Below are positions 3,010 through 54,842 of a stretch of 64,000 bases of DNA, one piece after another. Under the pieces are notes generated by a model. The model did not search any database. It worked only from the letters and a program-made list of their open reading frames with translations, and was not told the DNA's origin. The position numbers and the translations under genes are program-made. This DNA comes from a virus: the UHGV virus genome UHGV-0134996; one strand, written 5' to 3'. How positions within the stretch are numbered: position 1 is the stretch's first letter; each line of letters starts with the position of its first letter.

Positions 3010-3329
3010 ATTGGCAGCCTCCTTAGACGTTGGTATGTAACCACCGCAGAAGAGACCAATCTTGCTGGCGGTGGACTGTACGGAGTTGGCCTTACTGGCG
3101 TCCAAGGTAACCAGCCTACCCGAAGGTAGCCCCATACAGCCCACCATTGTAGAGGTGTGCGTGTACGCCGATACAAAAAAAAGACGCGAGCGGCGTCTGT
3201 ATCGCCTTAGACTTAAGCGGGAGGCCAATCCCGGCACCCGTTTTAATGAGGTGCCTGATAAGCATAAACCGAAAATGCCTCAAGGCGCAAGAGGTCAGGT
3301 TCAATGTAACATCGGCAGTCAAAAAACAC

Positions 3330-7724: not shown

Positions 7725-7925
7725 TTATCTGCTGCCCGGCATTCTCTGTTTAAGCACAACCATTTCCTGACGGCATAACACAGCAATAGCGGTCCTGGCA
7801 CCAATTTGCTTACCAACCAGGTATTGCTTTACCTCGCGGCGACTCACGCCATCAAGAAGCATCTTTAACGCTTCACGGGACAATTTGTTGTATTTACGTG
7901 CCATTAATCTACTCCGCGGAACCAT
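7725..7925 (-). CDS. small basic hypothetical protein (P1 pdcA position)
   Basis: 66-aa ORF downstream of doc, overlaps doc 3' end by 17 nt. Confidence 0.35.
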
Positions 7926-8289
7926 ACAATCTACGTAACGTGTCGGCGACAGAAGATACAGATATCTCTCCTGTCGCAGCCCCTACGGTAAGGTCTGCCA
8001 GTTCAGGTGAATCAAATACCTGCACCCCGTTACGGCGTAGAAATAACAGCGCACTGTTTAGCGCGGTACGCTTATTGGCATCATTGAATATATGCCCTCT
8101 CGCTGTAGCCACCAGGTAGGTGGCGGAGACTTCGAAAAGGTCGGTGATCTCTTCGTAGGCAACTCTGGCCTGAACTCTCCCGATAATGGCCTCTGCCCTA
8201 CCCGGATCTGACATTCCCGGCAGGCCGCCGTAGCGGTTTATATTCGCATCATGAAGCGCAATAAGTTCTTCCGGTGATATATGCCTCAT
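7909..8289 (-). CDS. doc: Doc toxin (Fic-fold kinase) of phd-doc addiction module
   Basis: 126 aa; start overlaps phd stop (TAATG); sequence and size as P1 Doc. Confidence 0.92.
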
Positions 8290-8510
8290 TATCGGTTAAC
8301 CAGTTCCTTGTTGGTGGAGTCCAGGGTGTCAAACAGGGATGCAAATTCAGCATCCAGCGCCGCTTTTTTGTAGGCTTCGAAAGTAGCCTTGCTGACAATT
8401 ACTGCTGGCTCACGGCCTCTGCGGGTGATTTCAACCTCTTCCCCGGCTTCAACATTGTTGAGCACTTCAGAAAGGTTGCCGCGCGCGGTACGGAAGTTAA
8501 TGGATTGCAT
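8289..8510 (-). CDS. phd: Phd antitoxin
   Basis: 73 aa [39 protein letters not shown]... as P1 Phd. Confidence 0.92.
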
Positions 8511-49102: not shown

Positions 49103-49684
49103 ATGGCACCTATACCTTATGGGGTTTACAGCCAGGCTGACGGTGTATCGCCATTTCTGAAAGTTACTTTAACGAACTCTCAGTACCAGGTTACCGGATA
49201 TATCAGCCAGGGGGCAGCAATGAACATGGCCCAGAATTGGGAAGCGCCGTTTACCGGTATGTCCATGGGGTCTGTTGCTGGTGCTTTCAGTGGTTTTGCG
49301 CAGGTTGGCACTGAAACAACGTCGGTGGCCCGTTGGAACAGCTTAATGGTTTGGGAGGGGGGAACACCGCCGACTTTCACGCTGCCAGTAACTTTCATCG
49401 CTTTGTTTGACCCATTCACGGAGGTTTCAGGAGCTATCGCCGCATTGTCAGCGATGATTAGCCCGGAACTTAAAGATGCCAGTATTGGTGGTCGAATCCC
49501 GGAGCGTGTGACGCTAAACATTGGTCGCCGGATCAACATCATTGATGTCGCTATCCAGGACATAAGTTTCGATCTCGATGCGCCCAGGGACAGCAATGGG
49601 CATTTCCTGAAAAACACCGTCAACCTCCAGTTGACCGGTTCTTCGATATATAACAGCTCCGATATTGTTCGGGCGTTCCAGTAA
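49103..49684 (+). CDS. hypothetical tail/structural protein
   Basis: 193-aa ORF in late operon. Confidence 0.45.
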   Translation: MAPIPYGVYSQADGVSPFLKVTLTNSQYQVTGYISQGAAMNMAQNWEAPFTGMSMGSVAGAFSGFAQVGTETTSVARWNSLMVWEGGTPPTFTLPVTFIALFDPFTEVSGAIAALSAMISPELKDASIGGRIPERVTLNIGRRINIIDVAIQDISFDLDAPRDSNGHFLKNTVNLQLTGSSIYNSSDIVRAFQ

Positions 49685-49695
49685 AAGGATTTTAT

Positions 49696-50205
49696 ATGGG
49701 GCACAATAACACTAAGGGAAACCGTAAATTTATTAAGGGCCGCTATACTGCCAACGCGGCCAAAGGCGAACGACTGGTATCTTCTGAATTCCAGCTCACT
49801 TTTGCAGGCCATGAAGATATCAGCGTACTGGTTCGCACGTCGCAAATTCCTGAAATGACCCGCGAGGATGTGGAGGACTATGGTCCGAATGGTGTGAAGT
49901 TCAACCAGCACGGTCCAATTCGAAACTCTGGGGAAATCCAGGTCCAGTGCGTGGAGACTATCGAAGGCGATATTCTTCAGTTCATTAAAGATCGCATTGC
50001 GGCGAAGGACTATGTTGATATCACGATGGCTGCTACCCCTGAATCCAAATCTTCCGGGGTTAACGCTGTGACAAAAGCTGCTACAACAATTGAAATGTTG
50101 GACTGCAAAATCTACAGTGATGCAATCGACTTTAGTACCGAAGATGTGACTGCTGCTGTGCGCCCGTCACTTCGTATCGTCTACAACTGGATTGATTGGG
50201 ATTAA
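49696..50205 (+). CDS. hypothetical tail/structural protein
   Basis: 169-aa ORF followed by strong terminator. Confidence 0.45.
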   Translation: MGHNNTKGNRKFIKGRYTANAAKGERLVSSEFQLTFAGHEDISVLVRTSQIPEMTREDVEDYGPNGVKFNQHGPIRNSGEIQVQCVETIEGDILQFIKDRIAAKDYVDITMAATPESKSSGVNAVTKAATTIEMLDCKIYSDAIDFSTEDVTAAVRPSLRIVYNWIDWD

Positions 50206-50224
50206 GAGTCATCCCTTGTATTTT

Positions 50225-50248
50225 AAAGCTCCTTCGGGAGCTTTTTTA
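50225..50248 (+). terminator. rho-independent terminator of head/sheath operon
   Basis: AGCTCCTTCGGGAGCT hairpin followed by TTTTTT. Confidence 0.85.
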
Positions 50249-50320
50249 TTTGGAGAGGAAAGGGTGCATTGAGGATACCTGACACACGAAGAGTGGCGGG
50301 ATCTCTCCCCGCCAGGTCTC

Positions 50321-50476
50321 TTACCTTTCAGATTCGTAGGCTGTGAAGACAGTGACCTCCGTCTGGCTGGTTCGGATTCGTACCTCGCAGAGGTCTTTCC
50401 TCGTTACCAGTGCCGTCACAATGACGGTTAAACAGATGACGATCAGAGCGATTAATATCGCTTTTTGCTGCTTCAT
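50321..50476 (-). CDS. hok: Hok/Gef-family type I toxin
   Basis: 51 aa MKQQKAILIALIVICLTVIVTALVTRKDLCEVRIRTSQTEVTVFTAYESER, near-identical in pattern to E. coli Gef/HokC; frame missing from ORF track. Confidence 0.85.
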   Translation of the reverse strand: MKQQKAILIALIVICLTVIVTALVTRKDLCEVRIRTSQTEVTVFTAYESER

Positions 50477-50534
50477 AGCCTGCTTCTCCTTGACCTTTTG
50501 GTCGGTAAGAGGCTAATCTACGTATGCTAAGCAT
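50328..50534 (-). CDS. mok: Mok-like overlapping reading frame (modulator of killing)
   Basis: 68-aa ORF overlapping nearly all of hok in another frame and starting upstream, as in hok/mok/sok loci. Confidence 0.6.
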   Translation of the reverse strand: MLSIRRLASYRPKGQGEAGYEAAKSDINRSDRHLFNRHCDGTGNEERPLRGTNPNQPDGGHCLHSLRI

Positions 50535-50657
50535 AGATATGGCCTCAGATTAATGTTAAGCGTCTTGCAGGACGCGTAATGTTATCTGGGGCTTTCTTCT
50601 ATCTGCTTTTCGGGTAATGCCTGAAGCAGATAGCCTCAAGCACCCGCAACGATTGTA

Positions 50658-50984
50658 TCAATGTCTGGCTTTTTTTCTATAGAAATCACCTGGAAGGGTG
50701 AATATCCACATCAGAAGAAATGTTGCAGCAAACATGATCCCTAATGGCCAGACCGCGCCAAAGAAAATCCATACTAAGATCTCCTCTGCTCGTTCTTTGC
50801 GGTCGATATCGACAAGCATTTTTCGGCTGATCATGTATACACAGAAGCCAATACAAACATATCCTGCAAAAGCGATCGCTAACTGTAAAAAATCAGATTG
50901 CATCTCCGACCTCAAACTGAAAACGCCAGGTGACTCCAGATTAGAGCAATCTATCACCCTCTGAATCCTGCCGGTATACCCCAT
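50658..50984 (-). CDS. small membrane protein downstream of repL
   Basis: Two hydrophobic helices; overlaps repL 3' end so start likely internal (MQSDFLQ...). Confidence 0.45.
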   Translation of the reverse strand: MGYTGRIQRVIDCSNLESPGVFSLRSEMQSDFLQLAIAFAGYVCIGFCVYMISRKMLVDIDRKERAEEILVWIFFGAVWPLGIMFAATFLLMWIFTLPGDFYRKKARH

Positions 50985-51799
50985 TGTTCGTTATCTTTAT
51001 TTTTGGCTAAAACCGCATTAAGAGCTTCGTTTACCGTCATGCAATGCGGCAGATTATCGAAGTTTGATATCCCGCCAATATCAGGAGAACGCTTGTCCTT
51101 CAGGTAAGCATATTTCCGCGCTGCCGCCTCTACTTTCTGCTTGAACTCATGTTTTTGAGCGCGTTTTTTGGATAACCGCAGATTGTCAGCCTTTGCTTTT
51201 GCCTCAGCGATCCATGAAATCAATTTTTTGAGTCTGGTCGTTCCGGCACCGCCGGAAACTGATCTTTTTGTTTTTTTAACTTGTGACTTCTTATTCTTTA
51301 TTGCCACGTCATCCTGACAGGGGGAGGGGGTATCATTTTGACATGGGGGTGTGGATAAAAAATTAAATAAAGCCAATGTCTTAGCGAGAACAGCTTTAAC
51401 CTTGGTTGCCGCTGAAGAGATCTTTAATTTGCTTTCAATCAGCGCATTTTTGGCTTGTTGTGCGAAGGCCAAAAAGGATGGTGTAAACCGGTACAGGTTA
51501 GCGCGACGTTCACGGTGATCGCCGATAACAATCTCTACAGACAGAATTCCTTTGTTTACAGCTTCACGGAATGCACGAACGACGGTTGATTGGCTATAAC
51601 CAGTTTCTGCCGCGATCAGGCGGTGAGGCTTGTGAATGAAGTATTCACTGGTTGTTGCCGCGAGATTTGCACATTGCGACAGGATATGCCCGGCGCTACG
51701 GGATAGACCGGAGTGTGTTACAAAGCAGGCCAATTCATAGCCAGAAAAAGTAAAATCGCTCATCGTTATACAGCTCAGGAAAGTGACTTTAGCCAGCAT
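50954..51799 (-). CDS. repL: RepL, lytic replicon initiator
   Basis: 281 aa downstream of kilA under the same C1 operator; P1 RepL size and position. Confidence 0.85.
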   Translation of the reverse strand: MLAKVTFLSCITMSDFTFSGYELACFVTHSGLSRSAGHILSQCANLAATTSEYFIHKPHRLIAAETGYSQSTVVRAFREAVNKGILSVEIVIGDHRERRANLYRFTPSFLAFAQQAKNALIESKLKISSAATKVKAVLAKTLALFNFLSTPPCQNDTPSPCQDDVAIKNKKSQVKKTKRSVSGGAGTTRLKKLISWIAEAKAKADNLRLSKKRAQKHEFKQKVEAAARKYAYLKDKRSPDIGGISNFDNLPHCMTVNEALNAVLAKNKDNEQWGIPAGFRG

Positions 51800-54528: not shown

Positions 54529-54842
54529 AGTTACGGCCTCACAATCAGGTTTAACAACCTGCTACCCGCTGCTAAACAGGTGGCAGGACGTGACGGGGTT
54601 AGCAGACTGGCGATTGTGAAACCAGCAGGCCGAAGCCTCCCCATCACGCCCCACCATAATTTGGGCGTAACGCGGTTTTACGGACACAAAAATACCGCAA
54701 TATCGGATATCTGCGGCTGTCCGCACAATCATTCAGGCTGCTAAACCCGGTCGCAGAATTTGCTACGACGGCGGAACTATAAGCCTGAACGATTAAAAGG
54801 TCAATATGATGCGAAAAGATAGCATTCGCGACTTAAAAATAC

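Follow-up and report, generated by a model that had tools for sequence, protein, structure and literature searches.

A predicted intact hok/mok/sok type I cassette in the repL-bplB slot of a P1-like phage-plasmid

We analysed a 64,000-nt stretch of viral DNA (UHGV virus genome UHGV-0134996, hereafter the window) and conclude with high confidence that it carries an intact type I cassette, hok/mok/sok, which belongs to the prophage hokD/hokW clade and is predicted to work by the molecular mechanism known from plasmid R1. This confidence covers the identity and the molecular mechanism of the cassette; its biological role stands outside it. The cassette is an ordinary, already-known member of the textbook hok/sok family, and its gene is already named in RefSeq/GenBank. 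The element that hosts it is a P1-like (IncY) phage-plasmid, typed as IncY and non-mobilizable.

The toxin gene hok occupies positions 50321-50476 on the minus strand and codes for a 51-residue protein with one transmembrane helix. Its ribosome binding site is AAGGAG (50491-50486). A preliminary description of the window had called this frame a Hok/Gef toxin, and its coordinates proved right: the product matches the Pfam family HOK_GEF (PF01848) with an E-value of 7.4e-20 (score 70.7 bits, cut-off 22, over profile positions 2-42 of 42) and PHROG 251, 'MokW-like host killing', with an E-value of 1.6e-30. These two values rule out a chance open reading frame. The exact 51-residue sequence is found in 533 public contigs under Hok family toxin names, and the toxin frame is thus not a one-off sequencing artefact. 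With the NCBIfam Hok subfamily model the protein scored 47.3 bits against a cut-off of 73, and the HokA model also stayed below its cut-off. Residue 37 is a serine at a position held by glycine in most relatives; serine, aspartate and alanine are found there in other loci. A search of the window for a second hok copy found none. Tandem hok cassettes lying within ~1.5 kb of each other were seen in two Photorhabdus contigs (L030, 554-884 and 1183-1449; L042, 140-490 and 685-886).

A second frame of 68 codons, present in the list of open reading frames, overlaps hok on the same strand (50328-50534). Its ATG (50534-50532) precedes that of hok by 58 nt, is in the +1 frame and follows a putative ribosome binding site, GAGG (50546-50543), placed 9 nt upstream. 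The earlier reading of this frame as a mok arrangement is borne out by its geometry, which is that of the mok gene annotated in phage Rac (MN652886; start 58 nt before the hok start, end 7 nt before the hok end), and by a match to PHROG 37205 (1.3e-20). We found no family match for the 68-residue product in Pfam or in NCBIfam, the latter being without a Mok model. The exact sequence is present in 117 contigs. When we searched the other loci with strict settings for mok, only the P1-like copies were positive; a relaxed search together with alignment revealed an upstream ATG in frame with hok in many loci. This in-frame ATG is located 57 nt from the hok ATG in hokW (L054:1563-1775, AP004402), in loci L006, L007 and L014, in Photorhabdus loci L028-L041 and in an IncFII locus (L051), and the 58-nt, +1 frame spacing occurs in the window, Rac, L023 and L025. 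The difference of a single nucleotide thus predicts, in place of a separate mok, a Hok with an N-terminal extension, which in AP004402 is the 70-residue ORF-33c.

Upstream of both frames we located a predicted sigma-70 promoter on the minus strand (50652-50679), with a -35 element TAGAAA (50679-50674), a 16-nt spacer and an extended -10 element TGaTACAAT, whose hexamer occupies 50657-50652. The promoter scan gave 9 of 12 matches plus the TG. The distance from the -10 box to the presumed start site equals that of TAGAAT in the Rac and hokW loci. From this promoter-like site we place the +1 of the hok mRNA at ~50645, and the full-length transcript is predicted to comprise ~424 nt (50645 to 50222, minus strand), extending from GGGUGCUUGAGG to a hairpin shared with the convergent gene bplB. 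This bplB terminator hairpin (50225-50244), reported by the terminator scan, is contained in sequence common to reference P1, in which homology extends to 50247. It probably also terminates the hok mRNA, whose 3' end we infer from it; only three U residues follow the hairpin in the minus direction.

The leader of this transcript (50471-50645, minus strand) matches Rfam family RF01794 with 114.9 bits (gathering score 59) over model positions 1-157 of 157. Although RF01794 bears the name 'sok antitoxin', the model was built in the sense of the hok mRNA, with a consensus that begins at the 5' end of the message and reaches as far as the hok AUG. The match consequently identifies the hok leader, and Sok is its reverse complement. 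Other Rfam candidates in 49500-51500 (CRISPR-DR46, ceN48, sbrA and a 21-bit plus-strand 'sok') scored far below their gathering scores and were treated as chance. We next compared the window by nucleotide similarity with 47 hok loci taken from one-genome-per-species contigs. Similarity starts nearly always at 50645-50647 and, where the 3' side is reached, ends at 50262; homology to Rac is likewise confined to 50262-50648. These borders indicate that the conserved unit is the transcript, from its 5' end to the fold-back element.

Hok-type fold-back elements, by which the preliminary description had suggested that its reading be checked, were found. When the 424-nt transcript (50645 to 50222) is folded at minimum energy, a tac-like 5' arm GGGUGCUUGAGG (50645-50634) pairs with an fbi-like 3' arm CCUCAAUGCACCC (50274-50262), and the resulting duplex of 12 bp contains one bulge (-21.0 kcal/mol). 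None of 200 shuffled 5' ends bound equally well. When the 3' end was removed in silico, the 5' end of the mRNA refolded as a local hairpin. Pairing between the ends together with refolding upon 3' truncation is the switch described for the R1 hok mRNA. We scored the duplex between a locus's own 5' end and its own 3' region in 37 loci: in most of them it is located 45-70 nt past the hok stop, and in 24 at most one of 200 shuffled 5' ends bound equally well. Pair changes are compensated, with GGGUGC/GCACCC becoming GGGCGC/GCGCCC, for example in Photorhabdus.

Covariation was assessed in an alignment of 21 sequences, namely the window and 20 homologous loci from Escherichia, Kluyvera, Citrobacter, Photorhabdus and Erwinia. 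The fold-back is retained with compensatory changes in the 20 homologous loci, and RNAalifold independently predicts the long-range fold-back helix from the 21 sequences, along with a 5' stem, a Sok-target hairpin, a helix sequestering the hok ribosome binding site and a second long-range helix, which closes the start region of hok. Over the whole fold, 96.8% of pairs are standard, compared with 41-48% when partners are slid by 1-3 columns, and 20 pairs are changed on both sides, compared with 0-9 in the slid controls; as the structure was derived from the same alignment on which it was scored, it has some advantage over these controls. None of 500 shuffles reached the observed values. In the fold-back helix itself, 4 of 10 alignment pairs show compensatory changes. 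The helix CUCUU/AAGGAG (helix 6), which engages the hok ribosome binding site, is paired in 100% of alignment cells (21 of 21 loci). The model suggests that the hok ribosome binding site is sequestered in the mRNA structure, and, by analogy with the R1 system, translation of hok may depend on that of mok.

The locus very likely also encodes Sok, the predicted antisense RNA. The preliminary description had expected it on the plus strand at 50480-50600, and both a candidate promoter (50490-50519) and a candidate RNA (~50525-50600) fall inside this interval. The promoter, read from the sequence, consists of a -35 element TTGACC (50490-50495), an 18-nt spacer and a -10 element TAATCT (50514-50519). 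The RNA, with both ends approximate, would be ~75 nt long and would start with a short 5' tail, continue as a long hairpin (50541-50593) and end in a U-rich tail. Its 5' tail is complementary to the mok start codon (50534-50532) and ribosome binding site (50546-50543). The fold of 50519-50597 on the plus strand has an energy of -32.2 kcal/mol (z=-4.87), and none of 200 shuffles was equally stable. A generic promoter and terminator scan of the window reported neither the Sok promoter nor the Sok terminator. The promoter was missed because TAATCT matches 3 of 6 consensus positions. The case for the Sok promoter and terminator is one of homology. The promoter is positionally homologous to TTGCGC-17-TATCCT of the R1-type IncFII locus, TAnnCT is found at the Sok -10 position in 17 of 21 aligned loci, and TAATCT aligns with the sokW -10 element TAACCT (AP004402). 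Takada et al. mutated the sense sequence TAGGTTA, which corresponds to antisense TAACCT(A), using primers YO-421/YO-422, and thereby abolished the antitoxin activity of sokW, 71 nt of which are complementary to the hokW leader (PMC8621323). Phage AP004402 holds every primer sequence of that study exactly.

We compared the surroundings of the cassette with those in reference P1 (NC_005856). As the preliminary description had placed it, the cassette is located between the terminator (50225-50244) of the 22-21-pmgG-bplB operon and repL (50954-51799), with an 81-residue open reading frame intervening between hok and repL. Near-identical records show the same order, with 22 (sheath), 21, pmgG and bplB on the plus strand, then hok, followed by repL, kilA and icd on the minus strand. 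By blastn, homology to P1 breaks at 50247, shortly after bplB and the hairpin that terminates it, and restarts at 50940, immediately beyond the repL stop. The swapped segment (50248-50939, 692 bp) contains the hok cassette and the 81-residue frame, and stands in for the 1,826-bp Orlf/Op55, rlfA, rlfB, pmgF segment of P1. The junction on the repL side (50940-50955) falls inside the C1 operator Op55 (Orlf), of which the first 11 nt, ATTGCTCTAAT, are retained and the remainder diverges from P1. A third cargo occupies the repL-bplB slot in RCS47 (L052:1778-3882), where we found a 198-residue protein with no function assigned and an IS605-family element, ISEc46. This third arrangement marks the slot as a hotspot for cargo or recombination in P1-like elements.

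The neighbouring 81-residue frame (50658-50903, minus strand) codes for a hydrophobic hypothetical protein and is outside the toxin-antitoxin module, although its last codons contain the predicted hok promoter. It had been listed as 108 residues from an upstream ATG. The whole profile of PHROG 3772 aligns to residues 28-108 of this longer version (E=1.7e-53), and PGAP labels the 246-nt gene a hypothetical protein. The exact 81-residue sequence is present in at least 1,000 contigs. Assignments of the 108-residue version to B12D or PRA1 (Pfam) or to ElxI1 (NCBIfam) were rejected, the scores being below cut-off. A 146-kb IncFIB/IncHI1B plasmid (L055:867-1319) has the same hokD gene together with the last ~119 bp of the 81-residue frame. 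As this piece travels with hokD, the mobile unit may reach ~125 bp upstream of the hok mRNA.

We next surveyed the distribution of the locus. A match over at least 80% of positions 50200-50700 is found in about 415 PLSDB plasmids, in most of them at 99% identity or more; the carriers are mainly E. coli, with some Salmonella and Klebsiella. Examples of elements with this allele are plasmid pXJW9B263-2 (NZ_CP067401) and phage phi456. The segment rlfA-rlfB-pmgF of reference P1 is found in ~99 PLSDB plasmids. Among 5,426 complete E. coli genomes, 234 have the complete bplB-hok-orf81-repL arrangement, and a hok-like match of some kind is found in 4,744. Very short contigs in the assemblies of Acinetobacter idrijaensis (L013, 275 bp), Xanthomonas pisi (L026, 431 bp) and a Candidatus Scatousia metagenome-assembled genome (L050) also contain hok loci, with 87-99% identity to the window cassette; the Acinetobacter contig includes the P1-type bplB terminator flank. 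These three look like contamination of non-enterobacterial assemblies.

The locus had been described as hidden, which is not really the case, as near-identical plasmid records already annotate the 51-residue gene as hokD or Hok/Gef. These are its usual names in public records, with MokW used in MH422554. In the near-identical plasmid and P1-like phage records that we inspected, mok and Sok annotations are absent. Our literature search found no description of hok in P1-like or IncY phage-plasmids; the hok mentions in the literature searched concern only IncF, IncI2 and IncK plasmids of the same strains. More generally, gene tracks based on the length of open reading frames can display the mok frame in place of the toxin.

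Further observations concern other parts of the window. Rfam places the expected immI c4 at 54576-54661, with its a1/b1 targets at 54730-54782. It also finds a second C4 antisense RNA (75.9 bits) beside an isrK-like RNA (60.8 bits) at 3064-3254 on the minus strand, and the region downstream of pacB matches RCS47, JL22 and 673R5, in which ant/roi and icd-like genes are annotated. This suggests that the 3064-3254 region belongs to a second antirepressor-type immunity module. Three tRNA genes are found by Rfam on the minus strand (31543-31615, 33246-33318 and 33324-33396), which would match the tRNA set of phage P1.

The anatomy of the cassette, read together with the established model of R1 hok/sok, allows us to propose a mechanism. 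A constitutive promoter would produce a stable hok mRNA of ~424 nt, in which the extreme 5' end and the 3' element pair, so that the message would be locked, untranslatable and inaccessible to Sok. Slow trimming from the 3' end would strip the fold-back element and let the 5' end refold, exposing the mok translation start. Translation of mok would then be required to open the sequestered hok ribosome binding site. As long as the element is present, the short-lived ~75-nt Sok would pair across the mok ribosome binding site and start codon, block translation and mark the duplex for cleavage by RNase III. Once the supply of Sok stops, the stored mRNA would be translated, and the 51-residue Hok would damage the inner membrane. 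Points that we weighed against our main explanation are the weak Sok -10 element, the three U residues after the hairpin, Ser-37 and the sub-cut-off NCBIfam Hok scores.

What the cassette does for its host element is less certain than how it would work. We lean, by a little, towards post-segregational killing as its main role, with the cassette acting as a fast RNA addiction module beside the slower phd-doc on a single-copy plasmid prophage. The preliminary description had also placed phd-doc on the element, and both genes are indeed inside the window (phd 8292-8510, doc 7912-8289; together 7912-8510). We prefer this role because the host element is a plasmid prophage of low copy number and cured cells are killed fast by R1 hok-sok. 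Both R1 hok-sok and P1 phd-doc kill cured cells, Hok within ~30 min and systems with protein antitoxins over hours (PMC10899753). The other roles that we considered share the same molecular mechanism and are compatible with post-segregational killing. For the closest tested relative, hokW-sokW, it is help in phage release that has been shown, not maintenance (PMC8621323). The cassette could accordingly be a lysis or release helper that fires upon prophage induction like hokW-sokW of Sp5, with read-through from the C1-repressed kilA-repL genes possibly colliding with Sok transcription; we regard this as possible, if doubtful. Identity between the cassette and the hokW-sokW locus is 86.4%. Upon Sp5 induction sokW vanishes, HokW is made ahead of holin and endolysin (~1 h before the latter) and accelerates the release of progeny, and deletion halves the phage yield (PMC8621323). 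The context in the window fits as well, since repL and orf81 directly precede hok on the same strand, with a weak 5-bp stem (50701-50686) as the sole terminator-like site in between. The position downstream of C1-controlled kilA-repL, with only this weak hairpin in between, makes an induction-coupled role plausible. The hok cassettes of AP004402 and Rac are likewise co-oriented with upstream phage genes, but co-orientation in three contexts is weak evidence. The effect in Sp5 is modest (~twofold), P1 already times lysis with a holin, an antiholin and an endolysin of its own, and reference P1 manages without the cassette. A stronger version of this idea, which we consider unlikely, would wire the cassette to the lysis-lysogeny switch of P1: the junction halves Op55, and induction read-through would oppose the convergent Sok promoter and silence Sok. 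If true, a maintenance module would become an induction-triggered timer of membrane damage, and the loss of sokW in Sp5 would also be accounted for.

It is decidedly unlikely, in our estimate, that the cassette mainly serves abortive infection or exclusion, with the shut-off of host transcription by a lytic phage depleting Sok and freeing Hok. High-copy R1 hok-sok reduced the plating efficiency of T4 by 42% and gave smaller plaques (as cited in PMC8621323), but this reported effect is weak and needs a high copy number. The variable repL-bplB slot, with its differing accessory cargo among P1-like elements, is typical of defence or accessory hotspots. The P1 prophage is maintained at about a single copy, which speaks against exclusion. 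A decayed, non-functional hok relic, comparable to several chromosomal hok loci of E. coli K-12, is very improbable. Pedersen and Gerdes reportedly found, in 1999, that many chromosomal hok loci are inactivated, and the unusual Ser-37 of Hok and the weak Sok -10 box could be read in the same way. In the window, however, the promoter, the fold-back arms, mok, hok, both ribosome binding sites and the predicted Sok promoter and hairpin all remain undamaged and in register, and the sequence is at least 99% identical across ~400 plasmids from several genera. Post-segregational killing remains the role that we slightly favour. A fast RNA-based module and the slow, protein-based phd-doc on one element bear on attempts at curing such plasmids. 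Among natural P1-like plasmids that have been sequenced, the hok allele of the repL-bplB slot is ~4 times commoner than the rlfA-rlfB-pmgF allele. Work on reference P1 thus under-represents the maintenance and killing equipment of clinically relevant, resistance-carrying P1-like plasmids.

We finally compared the cassette with known systems. Its closest experimentally studied relative is hokW-sokW of Sakai prophage 5, a Stx2 phage, which functions as a toxin-antitoxin pair (Takada et al. 2021, PMC8621323). The two loci are 86.4% identical in DNA over 387 bp, and HokW differs from the window Hok in 6 of 51 residues (counted by eye), with differences in the C-terminal residues. The 5' end is GGGUGCUUGAGG in both, and they agree in the 3' fold-back element and, as predicted for the window, in the positions of the Sok -35 and -10 elements and in the long Sok hairpin. 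Both are found on temperate phages, hokW-sokW in an integrated lambdoid prophage and the window locus in a plasmid prophage. In hokW the upstream ATG is 57 nt away and in frame (70-residue ORF-33c), whereas in the window it is 58 nt away in the +1 frame and opens a separate mok of 68 codons.

The founding type I system, hok/sok (parB) of R1/IncF, has the same architecture in our alignment with the R1-type IncFII locus, hok coming last. In this alignment the 5' end is GGCGCUUGAGGC, and the block AGCCUCUUACCG...CAAGGAGAAG is conserved. The Sok promoter and the Sok hairpin are placed as predicted in the window, where the hairpin is ~20 nt longer. The R1 and window Hok proteins share 40% identity. 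A terminator of its own follows the 3' fold-back element in R1, whereas the window cassette appears to use the bplB hairpin, and the replicon types differ.

The name that PGAP/RefSeq gives to the P1-like gene is that of hokD (relF) from the Qin prophage of K-12, and the window Hok is ~90% identical to hokD-type proteins from Escherichia chromosomes. According to what Pedersen and Gerdes are said to have described in 1999, K-12 hokD is without a mok/sok leader. The window locus, in contrast to K-12 hokD, has a complete leader, mok and a predicted Sok promoter. The type II addiction module of P1, phd-doc, is present on the same element and is unrelated to the hok cassette in sequence and mechanism. 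Cells from which the plasmid has been lost are killed or arrested by phd-doc too. The protein antitoxin of phd-doc is broken down by ClpXP in the course of hours; Sok, an RNA, has a half-life of minutes (PMC10899753).
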